A DNA stretch of 64,000 bases, taken from a virus (taxonomy: Duplodnaviria; Caudoviricetes). Positions 12,257-39,467 of this stretch are shown here, in pieces. The stretch lies in the IMG/VR virus record IMGVR_UViG_3300049892_000014, positions 32,001 through 96,000 of that record. One strand, given 5' to 3'. The first letter of the stretch is position 1. Every line of letters begins with the position of its first letter. Made by a program: the position numbers and the translations under genes. The notes under the pieces are model-generated. The model worked only from the letters and a program-made list of their open reading frames with translations. It did not search any database and was not told the origin of the DNA.

Positions 12257-13155
12257 TACTCCCTCCCTTCCCAGGATTCTTGGTTGACTGGATACACTTT
12301 AAGACCATTACTTCTCCACATAGCTACTACCGAAGGCCTATCGTCTACGATAAAGTCAATAGAATCCTTTCCGTATCTAGCTATAATTTTATCAAGGATC
12401 TCTTGCTTTACAATGGTATCGGCACGATGATCGCCTCCATTGCGCATAAACATGCGAACCGGAGAGACTCCATTACAAATTAGCATATCCTCGGTAAGAA
12501 TAGCCTCGTCAGTTCCTCTCCCGCTAACAATAAATGTTGTTGTAGACCGATTCATCACGTAGAACCAGTCTGCAATAGGTCTGTTAATCTTATCAAGCAT
12601 AGCTTCGTTCTTTAATGCCGATGGATGAATCCTCTTTCCATTCGCATCAACACGTCCCAATCTATGACTAATATTCATCAGGGTGCCATCTACATCCCAT
12701 ATAGTAATCTTAGACCTATTGGGATCAAGGTCTGGTAAAAGATTATATCGCAGCGCCATGTTTTCAATCACAGCCCTACCAACCCTTCCGTTCCCCTGCC
12801 GCATCCTATCTTGATATATACAATCGTTCACAGCTGTCGGCATTTCGATTAACTCAAAGACAGAATCGCACATTTCCGCAATACCACGCCACATATCTTC
12901 ATTCTTCGGGCTAAGATTTGTGTCGTCAATCACTACGTTAAATCCAAGGCCCAAAGACAGTTCTGCTATGGATTTTTCCGCACGAATAACAACATCCTCT
13001 TTCTTTCCAGACCATCGAAAATCTTTCCCGAAGATCATCAACCGAAGATCATCTCTATTGAGTCTAACTGCCGTTTTACCATTTCCCACAATCTCCCTAG
13101 ACTTCGTACTTTTACCGCTAGCTGGGAGACCCTTCATCATTATAAGTTTTGGCAT
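12256..13155 (-). CDS. pseT: polynucleotide 5'-kinase/3'-phosphatase (T4 PseT-like)
   Basis: GLPASGKST, LNRDDLR, DDTNL, HAD motif DVDGTL, SGR, VDDRPSVV. Confidence 0.95.
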   Translation of the reverse strand: MPKLIMMKGLPASGKSTKSREIVGNGKTAVRLNRDDLRLMIFGKDFRWSGKKEDVVIRAEKSIAELSLGLGFNVVIDDTNLSPKNEDMWRGIAEMCDSVFELIEMPTAVNDCIYQDRMRQGNGRVGRAVIENMALRYNLLPDLDPNRSKITIWDVDGTLMNISHRLGRVDANGKRIHPSALKNEAMLDKINRPIADWFYVMNRSTTTFIVSGRGTDEAILTEDMLICNGVSPVRMFMRNGGDHRADTIVKQEILDKIIARYGKDSIDFIVDDRPSVVAMWRSNGLKVYPVNQESWEGRE

Positions 13156-13438
13156 AGTTCACCTCCATTCTTAACATTAGGCGTAATGCTTCCTTGTCAG
13201 CTTGACTAGATTGTATCCACCACCTACAGGCGTATGACGTGGCATCCATAGATGGGTAATCAGTTCCACATCTTATTCTTTGAACATTATACATGAAAAG
13301 ATTCATATCATCCATACCTTGTATACGAATAAGATATATTCTTTTTTCCTTGATACTTACTTTGTGATAGATGCGGATGCTCTGTAGCTTGTATACTCCG
13401 TCCATATTAATGTATTCCATGTTATATGTATACATCAC
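13118..13438 (-). CDS. hypothetical protein carrying the shared C-terminal helical motif
   Basis: SSQADKEALRLMLRME. Confidence 0.55.
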   Translation of the reverse strand: MMYTYNMEYINMDGVYKLQSIRIYHKVSIKEKRIYLIRIQGMDDMNLFMYNVQRIRCGTDYPSMDATSYACRWWIQSSQADKEALRLMLRMEVNYAKTYNDEGSPS

Positions 13439-15411
13439 AACTCCTTAAATGACGAGATAGCTTCTTCTGGAAGTTGCTTCTTATATTTCAGAACAATCTT
13501 CCTTCCTAAAGCAGCGGCCTTTGGAGTAAGCCTGCCCTGTTGGGCTAAGTTTACACCTAACCTGGTATCGAATTTATTAAACCCTATACCGTCCACAGCT
13601 CTAGCTCCATCACAAAGGCCAGCTATCATCTTTAATGCTAGGTGAATATCATCTATCTGCCTAGAGGTTAGCTTTTGAGAATCAAGGGTTAATTGATCTG
13701 GAGAGACTGATTCCGTAGCAACTGGCTCGGCGTAGTTTGCGCTTAATTCCTCTAACTTTAACGCCTGTCCTACGGCCAATCCCTTATCCAATGCCTTATC
13801 GGCTACGTTCTGCTTTGTCACTGTACGTTTTGCCATCATAGAGTCTATGCTACCCTCTAATACATAATGCTGACACAGAACGCTAGACAACTGGCCGTAT
13901 CTGTGTAGTCTATCTTCGCATTGAGTGATCCATGCCGGAACCCAATCTTCTTCAGCGAAGACTGCATGACTACAAACTAGCTGAAGCTTATTTAATCCTA
14001 TACCAGCGGCTTTAATAGATCCAAGAAAAACACGACAGTTTGGATCTTCTACAAACTTCACCACCGCATCATTCTTCTCGTCTACATCTTGCTCTCCCGT
14101 TAGCCTAACGCACATACCAGGAAACTGTTCATAGAGTCCGTTAATCATATCGTGGTGGTGAGCGAAGACTACTATCTTTTTATCTGTCCCCTCAAGCATC
14201 TCACGGAGATGATTGGCTAAGATTGGGAGTTTAAGAATAGCGGTATCATGCCTAACCTTTGCCATTTCCTTAAATGCAATAGCCTGTGAATCTTTAAGCC
14301 TGCTAATAGCATTATGATAATCCTGCTGATTATCGGAAAGCTTAGCTAGTTCAGCCGCCGCTCTTAATTGACTAATATTCTCCATGCAGTTTTCATAGAA
14401 CTGTCTCTCTTTTAAGATACCTGCTAGAGTTTCGTCTTGAGCGGGGATCTCAATAACCTGTCTTATCTTAGGTGGTAGATCTGTTAAAACCTCAGCTTTT
14501 GTTCTCCTAATCATCACAGTAGATCGAAGTTTCTGCTGTAGTTCTTTAAGATTACTATGACCGGTAAAATCCCAGCCAAACCTACCCTTCTTGCCAGCGG
14601 CATATCTTAAGCCAAACTTAAAGAAGTTATCGTAATTAGCAGGATCTAACCAATTTAAGATAGGAAACAATTCTATAGTTCTGTTAAGAATCGGAGTACC
14701 AGTGAGAGCTATCATACGATCAGCCCTTAGTGGATCTAAGATCCAAACATTCCTAGCCTTCTTACCTACTACCTGGGTAGTTCTCTGCGCTTTAGGATTT
14801 TTACAGAAATGACTTTCATCTACGATAACTAGATCCCAATGCCTTTTGCGTACATCTGTAGCAAACTTTTTAAGTATGTCATAGTTGATGATGACAATGT
14901 CATCAGCCGGAAAGCTCTTAGCGCCAATTCCTACGGATAGTTTTCTGGTTAGCCAGTCGTTTAATTCATTTCTCCAGTTAATCTTAAGAGAGTTTGGGCA
15001 TATGATAAGAACTGATTTAATCTCAGGACAGTAGTTAATCACACCAATAGTCTGAGGAGTCTTACCTAATCCCATATCATCGGCTAATAAAGCATGTTTG
15101 TGCTTTAATAGAAAATCTATACCAGCCAACTGAAATGGCCTAAACTCTTTGCCTTCTGGAGTGGGTACGGATATATTACATCCCCTAGACTTACTAGCCT
15201 CTATTGTGGTATCGTATTGCGTAGACAATGCCTCCAACTCAGCCCTGCAACTACTATCAGCATATCCATATAACTTAGCGGCAATGTGTACGTCCTTGGT
15301 ATACCAATGCCTCTTAAGTACATCCCACTTAAATCCAGCCTTCTTAGGCAGATCTTTTTCCTCATATCTAGTGAGAGCTACAAAGGCATCGCCTTCTTTT
15401 TGTAACAGCAT
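13435..15411 (-). CDS. SNF2-family (HARP/SMARCAL1-like) helicase
   Basis: LLADDMGLGKT, DESH, LTGTPILNR, QCEDRLHRYGQ. Confidence 0.95.
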   Translation of the reverse strand: MLLQKEGDAFVALTRYEEKDLPKKAGFKWDVLKRHWYTKDVHIAAKLYGYADSSCRAELEALSTQYDTTIEASKSRGCNISVPTPEGKEFRPFQLAGIDFLLKHKHALLADDMGLGKTPQTIGVINYCPEIKSVLIICPNSLKINWRNELNDWLTRKLSVGIGAKSFPADDIVIINYDILKKFATDVRKRHWDLVIVDESHFCKNPKAQRTTQVVGKKARNVWILDPLRADRMIALTGTPILNRTIELFPILNWLDPANYDNFFKFGLRYAAGKKGRFGWDFTGHSNLKELQQKLRSTVMIRRTKAEVLTDLPPKIRQVIEIPAQDETLAGILKERQFYENCMENISQLRAAAELAKLSDNQQDYHNAISRLKDSQAIAFKEMAKVRHDTAILKLPILANHLREMLEGTDKKIVVFAHHHDMINGLYEQFPGMCVRLTGEQDVDEKNDAVVKFVEDPNCRVFLGSIKAAGIGLNKLQLVCSHAVFAEEDWVPAWITQCEDRLHRYGQLSSVLCQHYVLEGSIDSMMAKRTVTKQNVADKALDKGLAVGQALKLEELSANYAEPVATESVSPDQLTLDSQKLTSRQIDDIHLALKMIAGLCDGARAVDGIGFNKFDTRLGVNLAQQGRLTPKAAALGRKIVLKYKKQLPEEAISSFKEL

Positions 15412-15421
15412 GAATACTCCT

Positions 15422-15997
15422 TTAGAAGTCTAAATTCTTGTCTAGAAATTCCCTAGCTTCTTTGCCAAGTATCTCCTGCGACAGATAAGAGGTTGTTGAT
15501 GCTATAGACTTATGCCCAAGAAACGAAGAAGCTACCTGGATAGAAGTCGCTGAAGCTAATAGCATCGCCACAGACCTACGAAGTGTATGCGTTGAAGCGG
15601 CAGAACTATCCGTACCTTGTGGCATTAGTTTACTTAGTATGTACTTAAATAATTCATGACAATAGGTTCGTCCAATGGGCTTAGATGGATCTAGACCTGG
15701 AAAGAGATACTTACTTGTACCAACAACCGTAGGTAGGTATTTAATAATCCTCTCCCTAGTTGTATCGTTAATAGACCTCTCTACATACGATCCAGTCTTT
15801 TTCATCTTCCTTCTAATCGACGTGTAGACATTCCCATTCCGATCTACAACGTCCTCTATGAGCAGAGATTTCGCATCGCTAACCCTAAGACCGGTATTGC
15901 CCATAATCCTTAGCAGGACTTCGTCTCTTATAGACCTAGATCCAGCTATATCATACATCTTCTTAATCTGTGCTGCATCTAAAAATATCTTAGACAT
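15422..15997 (-). CDS. tyrosine recombinase (catalytic domain only)
   Basis: TGLRVSD, HTLRRS, LGHKSIASTTSY. Confidence 0.92.
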   Translation of the reverse strand: MSKIFLDAAQIKKMYDIAGSRSIRDEVLLRIMGNTGLRVSDAKSLLIEDVVDRNGNVYTSIRRKMKKTGSYVERSINDTTRERIIKYLPTVVGTSKYLFPGLDPSKPIGRTYCHELFKYILSKLMPQGTDSSAASTHTLRRSVAMLLASATSIQVASSFLGHKSIASTTSYLSQEILGKEAREFLDKNLDF

Positions 15998-16400
15998 ATC
16001 TTGGCCCTCTCAATCTTGCTAATAAAGATAATCTGTCTAATTCATCACTAGAACAATTGTATACATATTTAGTTATTTCTATCCTCTGCTCTACAGTTGG
16101 GTGATACCCTTCGTTAAACAAGACATGTCCAGCTTCCTGCATAATTATACATGGCAGAAATGGAGTTCTAGCCTGATACGGATGGTTAATGCTTTTACCC
16201 CTAGTGACAAACTGGAAAACCATATCACGATCCTTGTCTACTACGGCTCTGTAATATATATAACTCTTCTTTCCATTGTCTGTCAGAGTCATCCTGCGAA
16301 TACAAGAGTTTCCCTTAAATTCTGGATGATTATTTTCTGGGTTGACAATAATATCATTTATGGAATATAGCTCAGCCCTTGCTTTACGTTTTTTAACCAT
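15990..16400 (-). CDS. hypothetical protein with shared C-terminal motif
   Basis: CSSDELDRLSLLARLRG. Confidence 0.6.
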   Translation of the reverse strand: MVKKRKARAELYSINDIIVNPENNHPEFKGNSCIRRMTLTDNGKKSYIYYRAVVDKDRDMVFQFVTRGKSINHPYQARTPFLPCIIMQEAGHVLFNEGYHPTVEQRIEITKYVYNCSSDELDRLSLLARLRGPRYV

Positions 16401-16401
16401 G

Positions 16402-16677
16402 TTATTTCACTCCAAAAGTTGACAGTAATCCACGACTAATCTTTTTTCTCCTAACTTTTTTCCCATCCATGGATACAGCTACACTTCTTGCTATTGCCAT
16501 TCTGTAGACAGATTCTATAGAGATAACAATCTCATCTTTGCCACGTTGCTTAAATGCAATATATCCATCAGGTAGGATAGTCATAATGCCATAGTCCGAT
16601 TTCCTGGGTTCTATGCGATTATCCATACTTAGATTAACTCTACGCTTAATCTCTTTTCCATCTTTAAGATTGATCAC
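16402..16677 (-). CDS. hypothetical protein
   Basis: Coupled ORF with RBS. Confidence 0.6.
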   Translation of the reverse strand: MINLKDGKEIKRRVNLSMDNRIEPRKSDYGIMTILPDGYIAFKQRGKDEIVISIESVYRMAIARSVAVSMDGKKVRRKKISRGLLSTFGVK

Positions 16678-17032
16678 GTTTACCCTCCAAGGTATACATC
16701 ATCCATGCTAGTTCCGCTTCTCTACTACACATATTAGCCTCTAAGGCACCTGTATAGCATAGAAAATCAACACACTTATACCATTCAGGATGAGTACGAC
16801 CTTCAGGATACTTAAACACAGTCTTCCAAACATAGAAATAAAAATCCATAGGCCATGTTTTACTAATCACCTTCCATCCTCCATTTTCACCTGGCCTATA
16901 GAAAACAATATCATCAACTTTAGTCTTCCAGTCTTGCGTTCTAATGTACCATCGCTTTTCGCCATTAAGCTCGCAAAGCGTAGGGGGAGTTTCGATAAAT
17001 TTACCACGCAATAGTTTTTTAGCAGCAGCCAT
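16664..17032 (-). CDS. hypothetical protein with shared C-terminal motif
   Basis: CSREAELAWMMYTLEG. Confidence 0.6.
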   Translation of the reverse strand: MAAAKKLLRGKFIETPPTLCELNGEKRWYIRTQDWKTKVDDIVFYRPGENGGWKVISKTWPMDFYFYVWKTVFKYPEGRTHPEWYKCVDFLCYTGALEANMCSREAELAWMMYTLEGKRDQS

Positions 17033-17857
17033 TTATACCTCCACTAGGTTAAAGGAACTACGATATAATTTCATATCCTTCACGTCCAAAAACTTACTAA
17101 ATATCTCAGGTTCATACAGCGATATTTTGAAATCAGAGCTACATAAATACTTGTAGAAATTAGCTCCAAAGGCTATGTTTTCAGTGGTTCCAATATCATT
17201 CAAGGCCTCTGTTAAAGCCTGATAATCTACCGGCTTGTACTTCGCTCTCCCTGCGGCTTCATACGGAAGCAGGACAAAATATTTTATTCTTTCTTTGTAT
17301 GTTGTGTAGATAGACTTGAATCGTTCCACACTCTCCGAATCGCTTATGATGATATGCAGATTAGTCTGTACTTTATCATGTAGTAGATCTACCGCATTCA
17401 TCCAGTAATCAGCCAAATGAGGATGGCAACTAATAGCCACTCCACCGCATAGCTTGGCTGTATGATTTACAATCTCTTGCGTCAACCCCATCCCATTAGT
17501 TGTGTAGTTTGGGAGAATGCCATAAAAACTAAACAGTCTCAGTATTTCGTTAAAATCTGGATGCTCGTTAGGATTTCCTCCACCAATAGCTACCTGGAAC
17601 GGTCGTTGGTTGTAGGTTAATCCAAAAAAGTAACTGTCGAGTTTCTCCAGAGCATTCCTATATCCATCGCATTCGTTTCCGCTATCCTGGTAGCAATACA
17701 AGCAATTACCACGACAAGCATTAGTAATCTTCACGTCCATAAACTCAGGATATTTTAGATCAGTAATAGGTAGAGATGGATCTAGCTTTATCCGTAATGT
17801 TTTTCCACCGATAAAGAAAGATTTATAGTTATGCTCTGGAAATACTCGACTTTTCAT
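17033..17857 (-). CDS. radical SAM protein
   Basis: CRGNCLYC (CxxxCxxC), QVAIGGGNP, NYTTNG. Confidence 0.92.
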   Translation of the reverse strand: MKSRVFPEHNYKSFFIGGKTLRIKLDPSLPITDLKYPEFMDVKITNACRGNCLYCYQDSGNECDGYRNALEKLDSYFFGLTYNQRPFQVAIGGGNPNEHPDFNEILRLFSFYGILPNYTTNGMGLTQEIVNHTAKLCGGVAISCHPHLADYWMNAVDLLHDKVQTNLHIIISDSESVERFKSIYTTYKERIKYFVLLPYEAAGRAKYKPVDYQALTEALNDIGTTENIAFGANFYKYLCSSDFKISLYEPEIFSKFLDVKDMKLYRSSFNLVEV

Positions 17858-18318
17858 TAGTTGTTTACCTCCACGGATTCAAACACATTTCTAATTAAGC
17901 TAGCTAAGCCAGAAGGAGTTCCATCTAGGGCAACTATCTCTATATCCCTAGCTAAGCCAGGATTACCTTCATACTTGTGATAATCATCAACAAAGTTCTC
18001 GAATAACTTTAAGGCTTTTTCCTTGTTTTCAGTAAGCCATACCGAAGCCTTCATTGGGTTCAGGTCGCTATTCGACTCCATAAATTCAGGATGCTCACTT
18101 TCAAGCCACCAGGAAAAATCATTCCACGCCTCATCGCTAGGTACTTCGGCTATGGTGTATAAATCATTAAAGGTCTTATCTGATCCAGCTGCCTTCAAGA
18201 CCTCATTCACGATTTTAACCACCATATTCTTAGCATCTGATGATGGAAACGTATAAATCTCAGTCGAACTATTGGTAATAATATCAATAATTGACTGAGG
18301 ATGTATCCTTATCTTCAT
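17857..18318 (-). CDS. conserved phage protein (DIITNSSTE motif)
   Basis: N-terminal IIDIITNSSTEIY; coupled to the radical SAM gene. Confidence 0.7.
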   Translation of the reverse strand: MKIRIHPQSIIDIITNSSTEIYTFPSSDAKNMVVKIVNEVLKAAGSDKTFNDLYTIAEVPSDEAWNDFSWWLESEHPEFMESNSDLNPMKASVWLTENKEKALKLFENFVDDYHKYEGNPGLARDIEIVALDGTPSGLASLIRNVFESVEVNN

Positions 18319-18469
18319 AGACTTCCTCCTTCTTTATGGTTATACTAACTTACTAAGACATATCTGTATCCAGATAGGCCACTGCGGCCAGGTTGTCTTA
18401 GTCACTCTTTCTACTATCCTTATGGTACCGAGAACTATTTTACTAATCATATGTCACCTAACTAATTGC

Positions 18470-18597
18470 TCGCATAGCCAATGTCGGGATTTAAACCCGA
18501 TCCCTTGACCTACACCACATAGCAGGAGTCAAACCGTCTTAGGGTAGAGCTATGTTTCGGATGCTATCACGGCTAGCACGGCGCATTGGCTATGCGA
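18470..18597 (-). ncRNA. structured tRNA-like non-coding RNA
   Basis: 14-bp perfect terminal stem, T-arm-like hairpin, potential pseudoknot, dedicated promoter. Confidence 0.7.
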
Positions 18598-18599
18598 AC

Positions 18600-18628
18600 A
18601 ATATAACCTATTGTTCACAGATTGTCAA
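18600..18628 (-). promoter_or_regulatory. sigma70-type promoter
   Basis: TTGACA-17 bp-TATATT on the minus strand. Confidence 0.8.
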
Positions 18629-18646
18629 GATCTTTCCGATGCTAGA

Positions 18647-18949
18647 TTATTTCATACCTTCAAGGAGACATTCTAACTTTAGCATATCAAAATCATCCGG
18701 TGGAAGTTCCTCAAAATAAGTAGATAGCTTAGTCTGCCCGATGATATTAGGATGTTGGGACAGCCCTAATTTTTTACATATCCTACTCCATACACAGGGA
18801 GATAAAGTAAGAGTAGTTCCACGTAAAACATTACGCTCCATCATCTCTACGTTTTTAACAGGTCTACTTCTTTGCATATAGTCTACGTTGATCCAGAACA
18901 TATACTTGCATCTCCTGGCACGTATCACTCTCTCGTATCTTGTACTCAT
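18647..18949 (-). CDS. hypothetical protein with shared C-terminal motif
   Basis: LPPDDFDMLKLECLLEG. Confidence 0.6.
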   Translation of the reverse strand: MSTRYERVIRARRCKYMFWINVDYMQRSRPVKNVEMMERNVLRGTTLTLSPCVWSRICKKLGLSQHPNIIGQTKLSTYFEELPPDDFDMLKLECLLEGMK

Positions 18950-18950
18950 G

Positions 18951-19241
18951 TTAATCTCCTTGTAGAATTTCTTGTAGGTGAAACGCTTCCCATTCAGCCT
19001 TAGTGAAATTGACCAATATCTTTAACCATTTCTTTCTTCTTCGGCTATCATATTGAGTGTTGATCTCAAATGTTTGATAAGATATTGGGTATCCTAGTTG
19101 TTTTTTAGCACCCTTAGACCTAACTATCCATTCGGTTTTCCAGTCGGGCCAATCACCATCTTTCGGATAAGACCAGCTAGATTCATCTACCTGCTTTACA
19201 AACTCATAGAAGTTATGGTTTCTACGATTCTTCCTTTTCAA
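18951..19241 (-). CDS. hypothetical protein with shared C-terminal motif
   Basis: FTKAEWEAFHLQEILQG. Confidence 0.6.
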   Translation of the reverse strand: MKRKNRRNHNFYEFVKQVDESSWSYPKDGDWPDWKTEWIVRSKGAKKQLGYPISYQTFEINTQYDSRRRKKWLKILVNFTKAEWEAFHLQEILQGD

Positions 19242-19686
19242 GGGAATCCTTTCTCATGACGTATGTTGTAAACTGTTTATTAGTAATCAGAATAGGTAGC
19301 GGTAGAGCAATCAAACCCTGCCAAGTTCCAGAGGAAGTATAGCCATTAAGATTAGCTTTGTCATTCCTAACTGTAATATAGGCAGTTCCCTGCTCGTCAA
19401 GACGTTGATTGATAAACTGAAGAATCTCCTCACGCTTCGCCGGTTCAGATAATGTATTTAATACATAGGTACATAAAATCGTCTGATAATTCCACGCTAG
19501 CCATGTTCTATTCTTATGGTATTGGTCATAACCTTCTATATCTAATAGCTTCGCATCTGTACCATAACCACATCCATAGTCAAGAGCTGGTTTAAGAATA
19601 AGTCCCCTATCATTCAACATCCTTGCTGGTACGCTTAGCTTCCTTCTTTTAATCGCTGTCTTGTGTGTATTATCTGGTGACTCCAT
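19222..19686 (-). CDS. class I SAM-dependent methyltransferase-like protein
   Basis: LDYGCGYGTD, YQTILCTYVLN, AYITVR. Confidence 0.8.
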   Translation of the reverse strand: MESPDNTHKTAIKRRKLSVPARMLNDRGLILKPALDYGCGYGTDAKLLDIEGYDQYHKNRTWLAWNYQTILCTYVLNTLSEPAKREEILQFINQRLDEQGTAYITVRNDKANLNGYTSSGTWQGLIALPLPILITNKQFTTYVMRKDSLEKEES

Positions 19687-19906
19687 GATTCCTCCAATCT
19701 AAAATACCAAACATATGGATAGCTTCCCATTGTTCGGGTGTTAATGTAGATAGAAACTCGTGGGTTCCGTCAATATCATTCTCATCACGGATGGCCCAAT
19801 AATGAGCAGATAGTATTGGTTGTCCTATCTTTTTTCCAGAGACAGATAATTGGATGAAGTATTTATCATCCATACTTACATATTCTGCACTAATCTTAGC
19901 TCCCAT
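19670..19906 (-). CDS. hypothetical protein with shared C-terminal motif
   Basis: LTPEQWEAIHMFGILD. Confidence 0.6.
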   Translation of the reverse strand: MGAKISAEYVSMDDKYFIQLSVSGKKIGQPILSAHYWAIRDENDIDGTHEFLSTLTPEQWEAIHMFGILDWRNHGVTR

Positions 19907-20162
19907 TACCAGATCCCCTTCCCTCTATAACTTCTGTTAGATAGAATAACTCCCATTCTTCTTTAGTGAATTTCATCAGTCTTTCAGCAAACTTAGTCTC
20001 GCCTTCTGACTTTGTATAATGTCTATACGTAGACCCAGAAATAGACCTACCTATTGGTACTTGTACGTTTATCCAAGCTGAACTAGCATCTCTATATAGG
20101 TCAATGGTATCTAGTTCATTCTGCCTATATCTGAAGATAAGTCTAGTGTGATTTGTTTCCAT
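19896..20162 (-). CDS. hypothetical protein with shared C-terminal motif
   Basis: FTKEEWELFYLTEVIEG. Confidence 0.6.
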   Translation of the reverse strand: METNHTRLIFRYRQNELDTIDLYRDASSAWINVQVPIGRSISGSTYRHYTKSEGETKFAERLMKFTKEEWELFYLTEVIEGRGSGNGS

Positions 20163-20197
20163 GACGCTCTCCTAACTAATTGTGTTATAATAGCTAT

Positions 20198-20749
20198 ATG
20201 GGAAAAGATAATTGGTTAGTTAAAAAAGAGGGGCCAGAACCTTTACTGGCAAAGAAAACTAAAGCATATCCAGAATGGGAAAGGGCTAATGTATCCTATT
20301 CGCATTGGCTCAGCGGTAGAACTGCTGAAGAAATTGAGAAGTTTACAGGAGTAGCTCTAGTCGAAGTGGAAAAGGATATAGCGCATATAGAAAGTGTCCT
20401 ACCTTCTAAGACTCTCATTGCAAACAACAACACTAGACAGCGCATCTTACTACAGCGTACACAAGCTAAAGCATACGCTGATAAGTTACAAGATGCACTC
20501 ACTACTGATGTAGCAGCATATCTAAAAGCGGGATTAAACCCGACAACCCCTCTAAAAGAATATAGAGAGGCTGTCGGGATGACCGAAAAGCCTGGCGCAT
20601 TAAACATTCAAGTCAATCAGCAAACTAACGTAACTACAGGCGTTAGCAGGACTGAAGATATTATTCGCTCCGTAATGAATAAGATGCACCAGAAGGAAGA
20701 TGAGCCACCTATTATAGACGTTGAGGCAGAAGAAGCTGAAGCTGTTTAA
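20198..20749 (+). CDS. putative terminase small subunit-like HTH protein
   Basis: N-terminal HTH-like segment, C-terminal LNIQVNQQTN and IIDVEAEE; lone + strand gene with TGTTATAAT upstream. Confidence 0.45.
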   Translation: MGKDNWLVKKEGPEPLLAKKTKAYPEWERANVSYSHWLSGRTAEEIEKFTGVALVEVEKDIAHIESVLPSKTLIANNNTRQRILLQRTQAKAYADKLQDALTTDVAAYLKAGLNPTTPLKEYREAVGMTEKPGALNIQVNQQTNVTTGVSRTEDIIRSVMNKMHQKEDEPPIIDVEAEEAEAV

Positions 20750-21960
20750 TCTTCTTCTACTTGAATACAACGCTTAACCCAATCAGGCGGCTGACAGTTA
20801 TAGCTGCCTACTTTAACTACAATGACTGGAAACTTGGGAATAAATTTACCCCAATCAGCATCGCAATCTGATACAATGACAAGAAAATCAGGTCTAGGCT
20901 TTAGTTGAGCCGCAGCCTCTATCCCTGGCCCCATATTTGTACCACCGCCACCAACTAAGGAAATCTGCTTCCTAGACTTAACCTTCTGAACATGACCAAC
21001 GCTAGAATCATTACTGATTACAGTAACGTCTACCGCCAGTCCCTTCAGGATGCCGTCAACCTCACCAATAGCATGGGCCAAGTCTTTATTAGACATACTT
21101 CCACTGGTATCAATCTGTACGGCAACATTAGGCTTAGGCGCACGGAGACTTGGCATGATAATCTTGCCATATATAGACTGTCTTCTGGCTGGTCTGCTAT
21201 AAGTATAGTTGACCATACCTTGAGTTTCCCCGATCATGCCACGAATACATCCATTGAGAATTGTTCTCCATGGAACTGTACTCCTTAGCATGTCGTCAGC
21301 CCATCTCTCAAAGCCTCCAGGTATAGAACCCCTGCCCTTAGACCTTGCGTAATCCTGTATATCCTTTGCCACAGTATTCTTAATTACCTCTACTTCTTTA
21401 CCTGTGACTCCCTGTACGCTACCAGTACCATCACCTTCTGGTACACTTTCATCATCGCCCTCTCCAGTAGCACATCCACCACAAGCTCCACCGCCTACTG
21501 TAGGATTAGGGATTTGCTGTTTAATCTCCTCAGCCTTATCCATTAACAGCTTGAAGTATTCCTCAGCCATTAAACCTTCGTCAAAGCCAAAGGTTTCTTT
21601 GGGATAAATAACTCCTTTGGGTAGCTTAATATCTTTAATATCATCGTTAATCTCACAGTCAGCCGCAAGATTCCAGATCATATGTTCCGCCTGGGATGAT
21701 ACGCAGGATCTTATAGGATGATCTCTAAGTAAGTGCATGACCTCATGTACCATAACAGATGCTATCTCGTTAATACTCCATTGGTCAAATATACCAGAGT
21801 TATAAATCATCCTCCATCTCTTATCCACTCCCATCGTAACTTGTCCCGCAGTCCTACTGAGATCATCCGTCTCAATAGGAATAAGCGCAAACAATCCTGA
21901 TGAAAAGTAGGGAAAGAGATACGCTGCCCTAAGTCTTGCGGCGCATATTCTTTCGTCCAT
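20746..21960 (-). CDS. DUF2201-like metallopeptidase + VWA domain protein
   Basis: HEVMH, WNLAADCEIND, VQIDTSGSM (MIDAS), GGGGT. Confidence 0.9.
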   Translation of the reverse strand: MDERICAARLRAAYLFPYFSSGLFALIPIETDDLSRTAGQVTMGVDKRWRMIYNSGIFDQWSINEIASVMVHEVMHLLRDHPIRSCVSSQAEHMIWNLAADCEINDDIKDIKLPKGVIYPKETFGFDEGLMAEEYFKLLMDKAEEIKQQIPNPTVGGGACGGCATGEGDDESVPEGDGTGSVQGVTGKEVEVIKNTVAKDIQDYARSKGRGSIPGGFERWADDMLRSTVPWRTILNGCIRGMIGETQGMVNYTYSRPARRQSIYGKIIMPSLRAPKPNVAVQIDTSGSMSNKDLAHAIGEVDGILKGLAVDVTVISNDSSVGHVQKVKSRKQISLVGGGGTNMGPGIEAAAQLKPRPDFLVIVSDCDADWGKFIPKFPVIVVKVGSYNCQPPDWVKRCIQVEED

Positions 21961-22231: not shown

Positions 22232-22404
22232 AAATCCTCAATGTTAATTCCGTAATGCTGGAGTACAACAGCTTCCAGCTTCTCGACTTCGGTAACCCAT
22301 TCAGCAGGTGGCTCAACTCCACTTTCATCTATAGCATCCAGTAGATCATTAGCGGCCTCCAATATATCCTTGGTTGAGTCAAGTATTTCATCAGTCTTAG
22401 ACAT
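22228..22404 (-). CDS. small acidic hypothetical protein (58 aa, below the ORF-track cutoff)
   Basis: MSKTDEILDSTKDILEAANDLL...; fills the gap with start/stop overlaps. Confidence 0.55.
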   Translation of the reverse strand: MSKTDEILDSTKDILEAANDLLDAIDESGVEPPAEWVTEVEKLEAVVLQHYGINIEDL

Positions 22405-22705
22405 ATTTACCCCCCAACTTAATCATTAGTAAAATTTTCTCTAACTCATCTTCTGACTTGTTCATCAAAAACTTAATAGTATTCGACTGAGCGTGGTGTT
22501 CTCCTCCGTGTAATAGCACAACAAGCTTACTTAATACAACATCATTCCACTCTCTGGGCATCCACTTCTTAATAGGATTACCATAATCGCCAGGGAATGT
22601 TTTGTATAGGATAAATATGCCATTCACGTCGTAAAACCAACCCCACCCGTTAGTCGTATCAATCCATGTTCGACCTATTACACCCACTTCCATATATACC
22701 TCCAA
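22397..22705 (-). CDS. hypothetical protein with shared C-terminal motif (start probably 22693)
   Basis: KSEDELEKILLMIKLGG. Confidence 0.6.
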   Translation of the reverse strand: MEVYMEVGVIGRTWIDTTNGWGWFYDVNGIFILYKTFPGDYGNPIKKWMPREWNDVVLSKLVVLLHGGEHHAQSNTIKFLMNKSEDELEKILLMIKLGGKYV

Positions 22706-22769: not shown

Positions 22770-23864
22770 CTACCAGAGTCCAGCTTGCGTCAATACATCC
22801 TTAAACCGCATAGCTTCTGGCGGCGGGAGCGATGTAGACTTAGGCCGATTCTTAACAAGCAATCTAGCACAAGAAGCCGCTATGTCTGCCACGTTCAATT
22901 CGGCAGCTTTAGCCAACACTCTCCAACCATTCAGCCATCGCTCATTGGTGTTGTTACTGATAACGACAGCTGTTACTGAGGTCAGTAAGGCGTAAGCCCT
23001 ATCTCCACGTTTAGGAAGAACAAGCTTTTCGGGATGAGCCAATACAACTTCAGGATCAGGCAACTCATCACCCTCTTGAAACTTCTTAAACTCTAGAGCT
23101 GGGCCGTCCCCAACACATCCAGCTATAAGTTCAAAGACTACATCGTCAGAGTCTTTGAAACCAAACGCTCTAGCAGCAGCCAATAGCCTTGCAGCCATAT
23201 CCCATGTTCTATTACTTGGCCACGCTTTACCACGACTATCCTCATCCTTAGGAATAGCATTACGCAGATTAGGACGAGTGCGAACAAATGAAACTATCGC
23301 AGTTCGAGCTAATTGGATATTAGCAGGTTTATCCCAATCTTTAGGAAGTTCCTGCTTTTTAGACTGCGGCCATCCAGAGATCATACCCTCAGACCATGAA
23401 TCCAGAGTATCCGCAAAATCAAAGTGAACAAACCTATTAGCCAACGGAGGAGATAGCTCCCATCCATTAGCCGCTTGCTCAGGTGGATTAGCAGCAGCTA
23501 CGATAGTGACATGCTTAGGTAGCTGAAGATCACCAACAGCCTTATCTAAAACCACTCTAAGCAATGCACTCTGTACAGCCGGTGGAGCCGTAGAGATTTC
23601 ATCTAAGAATAAGACTCCAGGAATATCGGTATTCAATCGGTGCGCCCAAGACGGCGGAGCATAATGTACAACTCCATCCGCACCCTGAATAGGTAGGCCG
23701 CTAAAGTCCGAAGGTTCACGGATAGCGGCAATAACTACCTCACAGTTCCAATCCATACTCTTTGCTACGTCAACAAACCAAGAAGACTTACCAACTCCAG
23801 GAGGGCCAGTTAGTAGCACTGGAACGCCCGCCAACATTGCAATAGTCATAGCTTTACCACTCAT
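22770..23864 (-). CDS. MoxR-like AAA+ ATPase
   Basis: GPPGVGKS, LFLDEI, AAANPP, PLANRFVH; partner of the downstream VWA protein. Confidence 0.92.
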   Translation of the reverse strand: MSGKAMTIAMLAGVPVLLTGPPGVGKSSWFVDVAKSMDWNCEVVIAAIREPSDFSGLPIQGADGVVHYAPPSWAHRLNTDIPGVLFLDEISTAPPAVQSALLRVVLDKAVGDLQLPKHVTIVAAANPPEQAANGWELSPPLANRFVHFDFADTLDSWSEGMISGWPQSKKQELPKDWDKPANIQLARTAIVSFVRTRPNLRNAIPKDEDSRGKAWPSNRTWDMAARLLAAARAFGFKDSDDVVFELIAGCVGDGPALEFKKFQEGDELPDPEVVLAHPEKLVLPKRGDRAYALLTSVTAVVISNNTNERWLNGWRVLAKAAELNVADIAASCARLLVKNRPKSTSLPPPEAMRFKDVLTQAGLW

Positions 23865-23880
23865 ATGTTTTCTCCTTAAG

Positions 23881-24141
23881 TTATTGTTTTTTCTTCGGGT
23901 TGCAAATAGGACAATCATCTTCCTGGTCTGAGATCCGATCAGGAACTAATGGCCATTGATTTAACTCGCTGACCTGGTTTAAGTCTCCAGTCCATTTTGA
24001 TGATGTGCTATGGATAGTTACAGATGGTATCTTATACTGCTCTACCATAGACTTCACATCATTAAGTTTATGGATATGACGGCTAATAATCTGTCCGTCT
24101 GGCAGTGTGAAATCAACTTCAAAACCTTTCGTCTTACTCAT
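23881..24141 (-). CDS. hypothetical protein with C-terminal CPIC
   Basis: AAGGAG RBS. Confidence 0.55.
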   Translation of the reverse strand: MSKTKGFEVDFTLPDGQIISRHIHKLNDVKSMVEQYKIPSVTIHSTSSKWTGDLNQVSELNQWPLVPDRISDQEDDCPICNPKKKQ

Positions 24142-28371: not shown

Positions 28372-28983
28372 CTAAAACTCAAACTTATCTTTCCCACCTA
28401 TAACATTCATCATCTTATCCATTTCAAAGCGATACATTTCTTCGTCTGATAATCCATAATTGATAGACCATTTAGTAGCTTCGTTGAGATCTGAGACAGT
28501 TTTGAATAAAGTCTCTAGCTCTTGATAAGTCCAATGTTTCCAATATGACGTAGTAGGCTTATCATCTGAAAATAATTTATTAAACCTATCTCTAATTGAC
28601 GCCTGGTATTTTATGGATAGTAACTCCTTATAACAATTCACATCTAAGGCAGCTATACTACCATAATAATTTACCTGAGATATATTATATTTATTACTCA
28701 ACAGTATGCGATAGATGCTGTCAACTCTATTCATAAGGCAATGGCCATCCCGATAAATTCCTAAATCTTTTCCCTTAACCATATAGCCATCATGGTCAAA
28801 CATTACAACTAAATTAGCCGGTCTATCCATATAAGCCATAACAACATTTCCCATAAACAAGAAATCCCGTATAATTGTGACTTCCCGTTTACCTTTGTAC
28901 TTAAAAGATGCGTATTTCTGTCCACGCATCCAGGCCATGGTTACTCCTGCAATATCTGAATAAATAGCTTTTTGCTTAGGCAT
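28372..28983 (-). CDS. hypothetical protein
   Basis: AAGGAG RBS follows a hairpin. Confidence 0.65.
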   Translation of the reverse strand: MPKQKAIYSDIAGVTMAWMRGQKYASFKYKGKREVTIIRDFLFMGNVVMAYMDRPANLVVMFDHDGYMVKGKDLGIYRDGHCLMNRVDSIYRILLSNKYNISQVNYYGSIAALDVNCYKELLSIKYQASIRDRFNKLFSDDKPTTSYWKHWTYQELETLFKTVSDLNEATKWSINYGLSDEEMYRFEMDKMMNVIGGKDKFEF

Positions 28984-31871: not shown

Positions 31872-31943
31872 ATCTTCCTCCTATATAAACCATTCCCAGG
31901 CTTGTCCACGTGTAGACAAGCCAAGGATAATCTATAAGCAGGA

Positions 31944-34217: not shown

Positions 34218-34260
34218 GCAAAAAAAAAGGCGAGCAAGCTATGGTAGCTTGCCCGCCTTT
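34218..34260 (-). terminator. Rho-independent terminator
   Basis: AAGGCGGGCAAGCTA...TAGCTTGCTCGCC then a T9 run. Confidence 0.85.
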
Positions 34261-34277
34261 ATCGTTTCCGGTTTTGC

Positions 34278-34984: not shown

Positions 34985-35013
34985 TTGACAGACTAATTTG
35001 ATTATGCTAGTAT
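34985..35013 (+). promoter_or_regulatory. sigma70-type promoter
   Basis: TTGACA-17-TAGTAT with TG. Confidence 0.8.
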
Positions 35014-35031
35014 GTTTTTTGTGGAGGCGCT

Positions 35032-35316
35032 ATGAAGAAGCTGATATGCTGTTTATTGTTACTTATGACGGTCGGATGTACCACTATTACGAATGGTAGA
35101 GTGATTGATAAGAGATTCTTCGCAGCTCATTATCAGGTAACGTATATGCCGAACGGTAAGACGCTGATGCCAATATTAATGCACCACGACGATGAGTGGG
35201 ATCTTAAGCTTGTGAAAGGTGACGATAGCGGGTGGGTAGAGGTTTCTGAAAAGGAGTACAATTCGATAAGGGTTGGAGATAATTTTAGTCTACACGTAGA
35301 CAAGGAGAATAAATGA
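35032..35316 (+). CDS. putative lipoprotein
   Basis: MKK-hydrophobic-TVGC lipobox. Confidence 0.7.
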   Translation: MKKLICCLLLLMTVGCTTITNGRVIDKRFFAAHYQVTYMPNGKTLMPILMHHDDEWDLKLVKGDDSGWVEVSEKEYNSIRVGDNFSLHVDKENK

Positions 35317-35852
35317 GAACGAATTCAGAGTACGCTGATATGCAGATTAGACTGAAACAGGCCGTGGCTGATTTTTATACGGCCATGATCAAATGGGAAC
35401 TTGATGGATTTTTACCAGGCAGAAAGTTTGATGAGGCGGATAAGGCCTCTGACGAGGTGTATAATCTATTAGATGAACAACGAAAAGAACAGGCTATGAG
35501 GGAGGCTGAAATGGCGTGTAACGGTGAAGAAAAGAATAAGATTAACACGAATTACGTGAAGGTTCAGGACGAGAGTGCGATTAACATTCCAACTATAACA
35601 ACTTCCTCTGAGGCTTATTACCCACCTACTTGTTGTGATGGATGCGGGTGTGAGTTGGATGAGCCGAGCGTGGCGATTGAAATTTATTTCAATAATGGAT
35701 CGTGCCTGGCCTTTAATGATTGTGAGATTGATATTAATAACGATGGTCTTCTGGTTTTTGATTATGTCTCCGTGTTGGACGGTAAGACGAAGACGGCCAC
35801 GTTTCAGAAATACCAACTCGCCGGTTACACGATGACGGTCGACAACGAATAA
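35313..35852 (+). CDS. hypothetical protein
   Basis: AAGGAG RBS, coupled. Confidence 0.55.
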   Translation: MRTNSEYADMQIRLKQAVADFYTAMIKWELDGFLPGRKFDEADKASDEVYNLLDEQRKEQAMREAEMACNGEEKNKINTNYVKVQDESAINIPTITTSSEAYYPPTCCDGCGCELDEPSVAIEIYFNNGSCLAFNDCEIDINNDGLLVFDYVSVLDGKTKTATFQKYQLAGYTMTVDNE

Positions 35853-36092
35853 AAAACGTATATATAATGATATCCGGACAGAAATCCGGACAAAATGTCC
35901 GGATTGGAATTCCGTGGGCAGCGTGGAGAACACGAACTGCAAGTGACTATGCGGCAAGGAAAGCTGTGGGTGATACTAGGTAATTCTCGCAGTAAGCCGA
36001 GAGCTATTTCGGCGCAGGATGTCTGGCAGGAGGTTGATCGGCCTAGAGTGGAAAGACACTCCCCACGGAATAAAAAAATTTTGAGTTTCTTC

Positions 36093-36121
36093 TTGACATT
36101 CTAAAAAGAACATAGTACAGT
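36093..36121 (+). promoter_or_regulatory. sigma70-type promoter
   Basis: TTGACA-17-TACAGT. Confidence 0.7.
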
Positions 36122-36139
36122 GGTTGAATTGGAGGGGGC

Positions 36140-36919
36140 GTGAAACTGATGGATAAGACAGGTAAAGAAGTTGTATTCCCCACGCTGGAAGAAGGGTGCG
36201 CAGGGAAACATTTTGAGTTTATGGGATTTGATTGCTGGTGGACGGGGTGGAAACAAACCGCTAGCCAGATAGTTTATGGTGGGCAGTGGGTTGCCTATGA
36301 CCAGAAAACCGGACTTGGATACGCTTATTCTTTACCTGGGCGGAAATTTATGCCTATTATATCCCTCACTCACGCACTGGATATGACGGTGAATAGCCTC
36401 GTAGAAGACCAATTTAGAGTTGTAACTGACAAGAAATATAGAACTCAGATGGTACGGCAGGGTAAGAGGTCGTTTAAAAGGCAGATATCGGAGCATGAGC
36501 GCAGGAGAATGATGGATGCTTTGGATGAAAGGAAGCAGAAAGAGGTTATAACTGACTGGTCTAAGATGTACCAGCAGTGGGTTAATCAGGCTGGAAAGAA
36601 TGTCGTACCTCAATCATGGACGACCTCTGGAACATTTATAGGACAACAGTCCATAGGAGCCGCATCCACTAATGTACCACCAGGTGGAATTATTAGTACG
36701 ACAATAGCTCCTAGCAATGTTATGTACAAAGGAAGTAGCTACGACTATAATGCATGGCAGGATGCAATAGTGCAGGGTTGTAAGGAACAAGCAAAACAGA
36801 AGGTTCAAAAGGAAATGGATGATAAGCTAGCCTCTATGAAAGAAGAGGCTATGAAAGACTATTATAATAGCTCTATCTTGGATAATATTAAATCAGTCTT
36901 AAAAGGAAAGAAGGAGTAA
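36140..36919 (+). CDS. hypothetical protein
   Basis: GGAGG RBS. Confidence 0.65.
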   Translation: MKLMDKTGKEVVFPTLEEGCAGKHFEFMGFDCWWTGWKQTASQIVYGGQWVAYDQKTGLGYAYSLPGRKFMPIISLTHALDMTVNSLVEDQFRVVTDKKYRTQMVRQGKRSFKRQISEHERRRMMDALDERKQKEVITDWSKMYQQWVNQAGKNVVPQSWTTSGTFIGQQSIGAASTNVPPGGIISTTIAPSNVMYKGSSYDYNAWQDAIVQGCKEQAKQKVQKEMDDKLASMKEEAMKDYYNSSILDNIKSVLKGKKE

Positions 36920-38223
36920 TGGACGATCTGAAGTTATACACGCCCACGTTTAAAGAGATAGGTTACAAGTTCATGTTGCAGCATGAGTCGTGGATAACAG
37001 CGCAGATGGGTTGCAGTACTGATAGTTTAGTTCGAGTCAGACCGCCCGATTGGCTTTCTGATTTCATCACAGTAGCTCTGAAGACGTTGTATTTTAAGGA
37101 CAAGGTAGGAATCGTAACAAACAATATGAATCCTATAGCGTTAGCCGTAGGTGCCGATATAGAAGGAATCGAAACAACGAATGGCTTGGAAGGAAACCTG
37201 GTGGAATTCTACAACGCCCAAAAGGCTGGAGATTGGTATGTTAACTCTTCTGAATATCTCCTGTCAGTCAAAATTCGTAGCCTTAGTTTCCCTTTTGTCG
37301 TGTATTGCCAGCCTGTCGCAATGCACGGACACACTGCCGAGAGGACTGAATTGATACTTCCTCAGAGTGGTTTGGATGAGTTCGTCACCTATTTCCAGAA
37401 TGAAGAGAGGCGTAGTGGTAGAATAACAGTTAATGTCTTTGGGCAAAAGACATATACCATTAAGCCTATGGAATGGGAAAACATGATCATTGATGAGTCG
37501 GTAAACTTTCTGATTAAGAAAGATTTGCAGACCTTCATGCAGAAGCGTGATTGGTTCTCAGGCAAGGGCATACCATATAGGAGAGGATACCTGTTGCATG
37601 GACCTCCTGGCAACGGTAAAACCTCTGCGATCAGGGCAATGCTTACACAGGCTAAGCTCCCTGCTTTCACTATTAAGAAGATGTACGACCCTGATGCTAT
37701 GTATTATTTCGAGGATATGTTTGAAGCTGCCAGTAAGTCTGGCGGCGCTTTTATCATATTAGAAGATATTGATCGTGCGTTCTCAGACAAATCGGATGGG
37801 AAGGAAGCCAACTCTAACCTTGTTCCTTTCTCCGTCTTTCTTAATTGTCTAGATGGTATTTCTGATGCTGACGGGATTATTGTCGTTGCCACAGCAAATA
37901 ATCCCCAAGTATTAGACAAGGCCATCCTTGAAAGACCAGGGAGATTTGATAGAGTGGTTCACTTCCCTAATCCGACACTAGACCTCCGAAAGAGATACAT
38001 GGCTAGTCATTTACCAGAGATGGATGATGAGAGCTTGACCAGGATAGCCGGTGAGTGTAATAATATGAGCTTCGCCCAGCTTCGTGAGATCTACATTATA
38101 GCGTCTCAGCTGGCGGATGATAGAAGCATGGAGGTCACGGAAACGGATGTGATAGATGCACATCAACGTCTTGTTTCAGCGCTTCAGAAAGCTAAGGCTA
38201 AAGATGCGGGGTACAAAGCCTAG
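36919..38223 (+). CDS. AAA+ ATPase (BCS1/FtsH-type AAA domain)
   Basis: RRGYLLHGPPGNGKT, IILEDID, LNCLDG, TANNP..LD.AI.ERPGRFD. Confidence 0.93.
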   Translation: MDDLKLYTPTFKEIGYKFMLQHESWITAQMGCSTDSLVRVRPPDWLSDFITVALKTLYFKDKVGIVTNNMNPIALAVGADIEGIETTNGLEGNLVEFYNAQKAGDWYVNSSEYLLSVKIRSLSFPFVVYCQPVAMHGHTAERTELILPQSGLDEFVTYFQNEERRSGRITVNVFGQKTYTIKPMEWENMIIDESVNFLIKKDLQTFMQKRDWFSGKGIPYRRGYLLHGPPGNGKTSAIRAMLTQAKLPAFTIKKMYDPDAMYYFEDMFEAASKSGGAFIILEDIDRAFSDKSDGKEANSNLVPFSVFLNCLDGISDADGIIVVATANNPQVLDKAILERPGRFDRVVHFPNPTLDLRKRYMASHLPEMDDESLTRIAGECNNMSFAQLREIYIIASQLADDRSMEVTETDVIDAHQRLVSALQKAKAKDAGYKA

Positions 38224-38500
38224 GATACCGTCTTGCGGAACGGTATCTTACGCCAAGATACCGTGCGAACATATGATCCTAAATGGTGTCAATTGTAGTG
38301 AGGGGTATATCTCTGTAACTATAACTGAAAACAATCAGACCAGGTACTTCGATATGCCTAAGAACTTTACTACTGAAGATCTTAGTTATGTAATGAATGA
38401 GTTCGGATCTCCTTCTGAGGCTGTTGATATGCTAGAGAATGCGACTCCGGAAGAATTGGAGAGGATTCAACTACTAGCGAGGATGCATGATATCAGGTAG
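38204..38500 (+). CDS. hypothetical protein with shared C-terminal motif
   Basis: ATPEELERIQLLARMH. Confidence 0.6.
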   Translation: MRGTKPRIPSCGTVSYAKIPCEHMILNGVNCSEGYISVTITENNQTRYFDMPKNFTTEDLSYVMNEFGSPSEAVDMLENATPEELERIQLLARMHDIR

Positions 38501-38804
38501 GCCTTCTGTATTAAATTGGAATGAAGGAGGCGGTGAGAAGCGCATAGTCGTAGGAGCAAATGAGAACCTGACTGCCGTTATCACAAACGTAGAAGCAGGC
38601 GCACTGCTGACCATAGTAGAGGGAAAGAGGATTATAGAACTTAAAAGAAAGATCGGAAATGAGGCAATCACTTCTGAGTTTATCTATTATCTATATGGAC
38701 AGTTTGATTATACTCATACCGATTTTGTTAAATGGCTACACACGGTCACGATTGATGAACTAGAGCGCCATAGAATGTTATACGCTTTATCAGAAAGGAA
38801 ATAA
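38487..38804 (+). CDS. hypothetical protein with shared C-terminal motif
   Basis: VTIDELERHRMLYALS. Confidence 0.6.
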   Translation: MISGRPSVLNWNEGGGEKRIVVGANENLTAVITNVEAGALLTIVEGKRIIELKRKIGNEAITSEFIYYLYGQFDYTHTDFVKWLHTVTIDELERHRMLYALSERK

Positions 38805-38879
38805 TGCGGGGTAGAGTACTGGTAACTCAGTAGCCTCATAAGCTACCTTATGTCGGTTCAAATCCGGCCCCCGCAACCA
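38805..38879 (+). tRNA. tRNA-Met(CAU)
   Basis: TGCGGGG/CCCCGCA acceptor, GTAGC-CTCATAA-GCTAC, GGTTCAAATCC, CCA. Confidence 0.9.
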
Positions 38880-38884
38880 AACTT

Positions 38885-39112
38885 ATGGGTGTATATGATA
38901 TTGAGATGGGAGTTGGCCCTCTAATGGAGTATATAATATTAGGAGCGCTTGACGGGTCAAAGAGACTAGAGGCTCAGGAGATAATGTCATACGTTCTATA
39001 TAGCATGTTTCATGGCGACCACATTCAGGCTGAAGACTGGTTTAAAACACATAACAGGGCTGACTATGAGAATGTCAGGCTCATGAGATCGTTGAGTAGA
39101 CATGCCAATTAA
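38885..39112 (+). CDS. hypothetical protein with shared C-terminal motif
   Basis: HNRADYENVRLMRSLS. Confidence 0.5.
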   Translation: MGVYDIEMGVGPLMEYIILGALDGSKRLEAQEIMSYVLYSMFHGDHIQAEDWFKTHNRADYENVRLMRSLSRHAN

Positions 39113-39467
39113 ATTACCGACAGTTGGATGGCACGACGTAAACACCAAGGAAATAATCCTTCGTGATAAGGGTGCGGTTACCTACCTGCCGTATGCTGTC
39201 TTTAAAAATGTGAAAGAGGTATGGCCTGATAGCGCAACTTACGCAATAGTAAATCGGTACGGGGAAACGCAGGGCCAACTATGGTTTACCCCTATAGATC
39301 TTGGCGATAATGTAAAGCTTAGCATGGAAACTTTTTGCCAGATGGTCCAGGATCAACAAGGTGGAACCGAATACAGCAGAGACGATTTAATCGGTTATCT
39401 GAAAGCCCTCCTGGAAGCAGATGTGGAGCTTTATAAATTAATGGTGAAAATGGGAAAATGGGATTGA
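39102..39467 (+). CDS. hypothetical protein with shared C-terminal motif
   Basis: LLEADVELYKLMVKMG. Confidence 0.6.
   Translation: MPIKLPTVGWHDVNTKEIILRDKGAVTYLPYAVFKNVKEVWPDSATYAIVNRYGETQGQLWFTPIDLGDNVKLSMETFCQMVQDQQGGTEYSRDDLIGYLKALLEADVELYKLMVKMGKWD

Follow-up and report, generated by a model that had tools for sequence, protein, structure and literature searches.

A C-terminal helix hairpin shared by small, divergent proteins of an uncultured phage and its relatives

Twelve small genes in two arms of a phage genome

The window analysed here is a 64,000-nucleotide stretch (bases 32001–96000) of the 104,912-bp virus genome IMGVR_UViG_3300049892_000014 (Caudoviricetes), and our subject is a set of 12 small proteins encoded in it that carry one motif, [ST]-x-[ED]-[ED]-h-[ED]-x-h-x-[LM]-h-x-x-[LMI] (h, hydrophobic), near their C-termini. 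The genome has no close relative among GenBank phages (a megablast of 10 kb gave no match), and single-query searches of viral contigs with its AAA and VWA proteins were likewise negative for relatives. Its genes form two divergent arms, one leading leftward from about 34.7 kb of the window and the other rightward from about 35 kb. The leftward arm encodes PNKP, an SNF2 helicase, a tyrosine-recombinase-like protein, a radical-SAM protein, a small methyltransferase, a DUF2201 metallopeptidase with a VWA-like domain, a MoxR-type ATPase, a DnaG-type primase and a DUF932 protein; the rightward arm opens with a few small genes, a gene for a protein of 259 amino acids (aa) and a classic-clade AAA ATPase gene (36919–38223). 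The 12 open reading frames (ORFs), which we name by their first coordinate in the window, make up about 7% of this phage's genes, and the relatives described below devote comparable shares to the family.

Eight of the members lie in the leftward arm, all on the minus strand, and are spread across 9.6 kb amid the SNF2, recombinase, radical-SAM, methyltransferase, VWA-peptidase and MoxR genes. The outermost, 13118 (13118–13438, 106 aa, motif at nucleotides 13160–13210, profile scores of 13.3 and 49.2 bits), has a 13-aa tail (13118–13155) that overlaps the first 38 nucleotides of the PNKP gene, whose Shine-Dalgarno run GGAGGTG is encoded by the last motif codons of 13118. It is followed by 15990 (15990–16400, 136 aa, motif 16005–16055), by 16664 (16664–17032, 122 aa, motif 16682–16732), which has an insertion between helices 2 and 3, by 18647 (18647–18949, 100 aa, motif 18656–18706) and by 18951 (18951–19241, 96 aa, motif 18957–19007). 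The latter is a paralogue of 19896 (19896–20162, 88 aa, motif 19920–19970; 33% identity over 63 aa), and between the two lies 19670 (19670–19906, 78 aa, motif 19694–19744). The last of the eight, 22397 (22397–22705, 102 aa, motif 22409–22459), is directly downstream of the MoxR-type ATPase gene.

The remaining four members are on the plus strand and follow the classic-clade AAA gene. The longest ORF of 38156 (38156–38500, motif 38441–38491) has 114 aa, and the public gene call (P0135) gives it 75 aa, with a start at 38273 and no overlap with the AAA gene. Next come 38487 (38487–38804, 105 aa, motif 38745–38795), 38885 (38885–39112, 75 aa, motif 39050–39100) and 39102 (39102–39467, 121 aa, motif 39408–39458).

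The C-terminal motif in the genome and its relatives

A first-pass annotation of the window had reported at least 12 small proteins with a common C-terminal motif. All 12 of the peptides that it cited are present in the translations, the positions listed for them being ORF boundaries or start codons rather than positions of the motif, and in every member a stop codon follows 3–15 residues beyond the motif end. Patterns derived from the motif match only these 12 in the 33,083-residue proteome, a test that is circular, and we therefore turned to cross-trained profiles. A profile built from the four ORFs behind the AAA gene put 22397 and 13118 ahead of every other real gene. In the opposite direction, training on the eight leftward ORFs gave a profile that placed 38156 above all 21-fold decoys, with 38487 and 39102 as the next real matches; these were its top three outside hits, and each was matched at the correct position.

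An iterated 17-residue profile and an 80-column profile each recovered exactly the 12 members among the 543 ORFs of at least 40 aa in the genome. With the 80-column profile, members scored 25–52 bits and the next ORF 8.8 bits, a gap of about 17 bits (25.5 versus 8.8). In the comparison with shuffled controls that the first-pass annotation had proposed, every member outscored all 20x shuffled decoys. All 12 are thus real, and what had been put as a minimum is the exact number at this sensitivity. Five ORFs that resembled members by eye (25104, 25318, 26648, 27637 and 28372) were rejected, all scoring at or below 3.6 bits. One of them (28372–28983) and L001:1058–1747 (minus strand) are orthologues of 203 and 229 aa with 29% identity; both end in LS[DP]EE...FE..KMM..I.G, which has the look of a motif variant in a different register and reaches 3.6 bits with the family profile.

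We reached eight related contigs (L001–L008) through homologues of the classic-clade AAA ATPase, whose identity to the window's protein is 64% in L001–L003, 46% in L005, 42% in L004, 41% in L007, 38% in L008 and 36% in L006. The motif profile placed 17 ORFs of L001, L004 and L005 above every decoy, and after iteration the family counted 31 members, in ORFs of 52–166 aa, across these three contigs and the window. HMMER, run exhaustively over 1.84 billion representative proteins, gave 31 matches at E ≤ 1e-3, all of 73–151 aa and all at the C-terminal end; 26 came from the known loci and five were new, and two of the new proteins led to two further short contigs, L009 and L010. Altogether, about 40 further copies, in ORFs of about 50–166 aa, occur in L001, L004, L005, L009 and L010, with nearly all of their motifs at the extreme C-terminus and often in tandem arrays.

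L009 is syntenic with window positions 17857–20162 and has five members around the methyltransferase gene, including two tandem duplicate pairs: 18647 and 19896 each have two tandem homologues there (49% identity for 18647), and the L009 orthologue of 19670 is 60% identical over its full length. In L010:1–2903, at least eight of 10 consecutive ORFs are members in a head-to-tail array. One L010 subfamily starts with MDMEYSKY and has a second, internal helix-cap motif, MTREEVEW. By contrast, L006, L007 and L008, together about 53 kb, gave no motif match above decoys. Since these three contigs have the AAA gene but not the family, the AAA gene is evidently the older of the two.

Searches for described homologues were negative throughout. 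With the 12-member alignment as query, a word-indexed search retrieved nothing beyond the window's own proteins; among the 10 members compared with Pfam, no match improved on E = 0.04 and all fell well short of the cut-offs; PHROG gave no match for five members and PADLOC none for two; and we found no description of such a family in the literature. By these searches, the family is undescribed and confined to a small clade of uncultured phages.

Alignment of 32 members anchored on the motif shows where conservation is strongest: position 7 is E or D in 32 of 32 and position 5 in 29 of 32, while position 11 is L, M, I or V and position 15 is L, M or I in all 32. In its first half, [ST]xxE plus a hydrophobic residue, the motif amounts to a generic helix N-cap, a conclusion drawn from the sole false positive of the short motif profile, a 97-aa protein at 4079–4372 with an HNH-type N-terminus (LTPEEYEKLKKAVMVRDGYRC...), in which the motif-like match lies near the N-terminus and not the C-terminus. 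In addition, as the first-pass annotation had warned of the terminal EG, in eight of the 12 the final [ED]G shares nucleotides with the Shine-Dalgarno sequence of the following gene. A common [ST]xxE cap and a purine-rich ribosome-binding site behind it might in principle produce a generic capped amphipathic helix by chance or as an artefact, but this is very hard to credit and is already refuted by the profile, decoy and control-locus tests: the cross-trained profiles recover the opposite cluster, the 12 stand clear of every decoy and of the next real ORF, the control loci have zero matches, and the motif is kept in the roughly 40 ORFs of related phages. A DNA-level repeat or recombination hotspot was also ruled out. 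Identical residues use the same codon in 91 cases against 81.9 expected, so that conservation acts at the protein level.

Structure of the hairpin and relationships among the members

The conserved unit is longer than the 16 residues of the first-pass annotation. In the anchored alignment (n = 32), it comprises about 25 aa that form a helix hairpin. The helix preceding the motif has W, Y or F at position −4, L or F at −3 and L, I or V at −6, and no linker separates that helix from the [ST] cap. In the motif helix itself, hydrophobic residues occupy positions 6, 9, 11, 12, 13 and 15 (six of the 10 central positions), and they span an arc of about 220 degrees by a helical-wheel estimate, which is easier to reconcile with packing on two sides than with a surface handle. 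MAFFT aligns about 45–60 C-terminal residues, and BLAST alignments between members are 36–63 aa long.

Two members, 38487 and 15990, were modelled with AlphaFold2, both from the family-wide alignment. The model of 38487 is compact (predicted local distance difference test, pLDDT, 88.6; predicted template modelling score, pTM, 0.78), with five strands (7–57) followed by helices at 63–72, 77–86 and 89–103, and the motif helix is its best-defined block (pLDDT 96–97). In 15990, strands (14–68) are again followed by three helices (81–94, 103–114 and 118–130), the last two of which (residues 101–130) reach pLDDT 87–92, and the order of elements is that of 38487, although the N-terminal half is weakly defined. 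Fold searches with the 38487 model returned nothing meaningful, with feature matches at noise level (≤ 0.81).

We consider it somewhat better than an even bet that these proteins form a clade-specific family of diverged paralogues, small and probably early, in which the last helices are the core of the fold. Most likely, each copy would fold as a single compact domain, in which helices follow an N-terminal beta-meander whose sequence has diverged past recognition. The last two helices, an aromatic-Leu helix and then the helix with the [ST] N-cap and EE-h-E-x-h-x-LM-h-x-L, would be the conserved core, so that the shared helix would serve as scaffold rather than address label. The family would have grown by tandem duplication, with each copy then kept by selection over its full length. 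The paralogue reading is supported by the tandem arrays and recent duplicates, namely the two pairs in L009, the array in L010, the arrays in L004 and L005 and the adjacent-region paralogues 18951 and 19896. Moreover, identities between orthologues are similar in N-terminal part and hairpin (29 versus 24%, 57 versus 62% and 46 versus 48%), from which it follows that selection holds each copy as a whole protein; the N-terminal parts therefore appear old and distinct rather than hypervariable. An isoelectric point ranging from 4.3 to 9.6 among members suggests diverse surfaces.

This picture differs from that of a detachable tag or sorting signal, as which the helix had first been proposed. A constant module on divergent small proteins does exist, in that the set is real and conserved in the clade, with a 38487-like gene always right after the AAA gene. 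Detachability is what the data do not support: there is no linker, the unit is a hairpin of about 25 aa whose motif helix is the confident core of a compact model, the genes form tandem arrays with recent duplicates, and homologues of the AAA ATPase occur without such proteins nearby. Diverged paralogues of one fold, the alternative that the first-pass annotation had itself set beside the tag, is the more likely reading, though short of proof with two members modelled and one of the models weak.

Several observations weigh against the paralogue reading. The 15990 model is weak (mean pLDDT 63.9, pTM 0.43, several blocks of the N-terminal half at pLDDT 34–56), the family-wide alignment behind both models may bias them toward one fold, and in the L005/L010 subfamily that starts with MDMEYSKY the N-terminal part looks more helical. 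Full-length homology between subfamilies was not detected by BLAST, leave-out profiles or hhalign: BLAST of the N-terminal parts links orthologues only, with no homology upstream of the hairpin; leave-out profiles restricted to the 34 residues that precede helix 2 fail to reach significance for most members; and hhalign of N-terminal subfamily profiles gives probabilities of at most 2.7%. The invariant acidic position 7 falls among the polar positions 3, 10 and 14, in one stripe by the helical-wheel estimate, and this stripe, which is not obviously structural, could mark a shared binding site. Finally, that variable sheet surfaces would bind different host or phage targets during takeover is pure inference on our part.

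Another reading is a mobile C-terminal module carried by truly unrelated N-terminal domains, with a hub other than the AAA ATPase, which might be a host factor, homo- or hetero-oligomerization among the paralogues, or virion loading in the manner of the capsid-targeting sequence of T4 internal proteins. In its favour, only the last 20–50 columns align in full-length hhalign comparisons of subfamily profiles (best pair 87.5%), N-terminal length and composition vary between subfamilies, and the range of isoelectric points is wide. The N-termini, which had been called unrelated, are so at the level of sequence only, by BLAST, profiles and hhalign. Against a mobile module, the order of strands and three helices is the same in both modelled members. 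All members are similarly small, and none of the 31 HMMER matches among the 1.84 billion proteins is a fusion of the module to a larger protein. In addition, the tandem duplicates are whole-gene duplications and not module transfers, codon usage is without the excess DNA identity that would mark recombination, and the genes lie in non-structural arms amid replication and repair genes. On balance, we regard a mobile module as improbable.

The neighbouring ATPases and comparable viral systems

The first-pass annotation had placed the family beside two AAA+ ATPases, which is exact for the four genes after the classic-clade AAA gene and loose for the other eight, spread as they are over 9.6 kb. 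Of these, only 22397 abuts the MoxR-type AAA+ ATPase gene (22770–23918, minus strand; AAA_5, AAA_3, bpMoxR; phrog_1297), and the gene for the DUF2201 metallopeptidase with a VWA-like domain (20746–21960, minus strand) has 19896 and 19670 about 0.6 kb downstream of it; we mention both of these enzyme genes for context only. Between the metallopeptidase gene and 19896, within an otherwise minus-strand block, is a plus-strand ORF of 189 aa with an acidic tail (20180–20749), and the minus-strand ORFs at these positions have a non-coding appearance. Elsewhere in the window, a 124-aa protein (2207–2581) ends in ...DADIPF, an acidic tail of the kind typical for single-stranded-DNA-binding proteins.

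The classic-clade AAA ATPase (36919–38223, plus strand, 434 aa) has PF00004 at residues 224–350, its only Pfam match, behind an N-domain of about 200 aa. Among proteins of solved structure, AFG2, VAT, p97 and BCS1 are the nearest to this ATPase. The label 'BCS1-like' had been attached to it; BCS1 chains in the PDB do match the AAA module at E of about 1e-27, behind AFG2, VAT and p97, and the N-domain has a lead-level likeness to BCS1_N clusters (features 0.80–0.84, structural template modelling score 0.42–0.46). By gene order, this ATPase is a conserved neighbour of the family: members lie on both sides of it in L004 and L005 and after it in L001 and the window, in L001 and L004 the AAA gene is followed at once by a 38487-type member, the stop of one overlapping the start of the other, and 39102 has orthologues in L001 and L004, plus P0152. 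L006 and L008 are jumbo-phage-like contigs (88 and 328 kb) in which the AAA gene, at 10001–11341, is flanked by an unknown gene of about 480 aa and by a gene of about 830 aa followed by a rIIB-like gene, with PARP, Ku, Tpt1 and sigma-factor genes near it.

Two sites that resemble sigma-70 promoters, by consensus match only, enclose the AAA gene and the four members downstream of it (36093 and 39464), and they make early expression of the members likely. The second site (39464–39492) reads TTGACA-17-TACTAT with an upstream TG, begins within the stop codon of the last member and may start the next transcription unit. The gene preceding the AAA gene (36140–36919, plus strand, 259 aa) has a weak internal motif-like stretch at residues ~115–130, SEHERRRMMDALDE, with a likeness to the motif's second half, which its L001 orthologue (L001:9397–10011) keeps as DKAERIKVMKALDTE. 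This gene may be a 13th, degenerate member with a long C-terminal extension, but this is doubtful, and it has no significant score with the 80-column profile.

This neighbourhood raises the question of whether the C-terminal hairpin docks to the N-domain or pore of the co-transcribed AAA ATPase, or possibly to the MoxR/VWA pair, in which case the members might serve as interchangeable adaptors or substrates, by analogy with the binding of ESCRT-III tails to MIT domains in VPS4 and spastin. That helical C-terminal motifs dock to the N-domains of AAA proteins is an established principle, an example being the C-terminal MIM helices of ESCRT-III, which are recognized by MIT domains in the AAA ATPases VPS4, spastin and katanin (PMC9477494). 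Besides the flanking positions and the overlapping 38487-type genes, the promoter-like sites suggest that 36140–39467, the AAA gene included, is transcribed as one unit, and the invariant acidic position 7 is found among the polar positions of the helix. Against this, AAA homologues with the same N-domain (36–41% identity) in L006, L007 and L008 have no member within 10 kb, eight of the 12 copies in the window are 14–24 kb away on the other transcription arm, and the observed proximity is biased, because the AAA gene was the means of finding all of the long related loci. The absence of a linker, the high model confidence of the helix and its wide hydrophobic arc also disfavour docking. The whole case for a functional link to the AAA ATPase is gene position and promoter-like sites, and we consider docking unlikely.

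As in ESCRT-III, the proteins of the family share a short C-terminal helix that is amphipathic, acidic and then hydrophobic, and in the phage it is encoded next to a classic-clade AAA ATPase. Yet MIMs sit on flexible tails, whereas the phage helix is packed in the 38487 model, and the phage N-domain, of about 200 aa, has leads to BCS1_N and not to the three-helix bundle of MIT. The MIM1 pattern is [DE]xxLxxRLxxL[KR], which as a regular expression has zero matches in the whole proteome; the motif fits neither MIM1 nor VIM, and clamp-binding QLxLF-type, SspB XB, HbYX and ssrA-like patterns, like these two, have no match in any member.

Two other viral systems offer partial parallels. Poxvirus ankyrin/PRANC (F-box-like) multigene families combine a variable, target-binding N-terminal part with a constant C-terminal helical module in a virus-specific expansion, and they are a model for a variable head on a common handle; their hub partner is Skp1 and their N-terminal parts are recognizable repeats, both poxvirus features, and there is no relation in sequence or fold to the phage proteins. 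The T4 internal proteins IPI–III are, like ours, otherwise dissimilar small phage proteins with a common short terminal peptide, but their capsid-targeting sequence is N-terminal, about 10 residues long and removed by the prohead protease, whereas the phage hairpin is C-terminal, structured and about 25 aa long, in genes that lie among replication and repair functions.

The paralogue reading has its own precedent in the lineage-specific expansions of small early proteins in large phages, such as the paralogue arrays of phage G and of jumbo phages of the 121Q/RaK2 type. In common with these, the family has many divergent copies of small proteins per genome, in tandem, in non-structural regions with apparent host-type promoters, and a near-invariant helix beside a variable sheet. 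It differs in its motif and is unrelated to them in sequence, and its genome is only 105 kb with 12 copies, which occupy two divergent arms with enzyme genes in between; one subfamily is tied to the AAA gene.

If the hairpin were a common handle plugging about a dozen small 'heads' into one hub, most plausibly the co-transcribed BCS1-like AAA+ ATPase, to which we give only a low probability, a set of exchangeable phage adaptors would direct an unfoldase to different host targets. A modular adaptor system would thereby be revealed in phages, a bacterial-virus counterpart of poxvirus Ank/PRANC or ESCRT-III/VPS4 logic. If the hairpin is only the core of a fold, the family would be one more case of large phages diversifying small early proteins by duplication. 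With no described homologue and no meaningful match in the fold searches, it is a well-delimited target for structure determination and for host-takeover and anti-defence screens.

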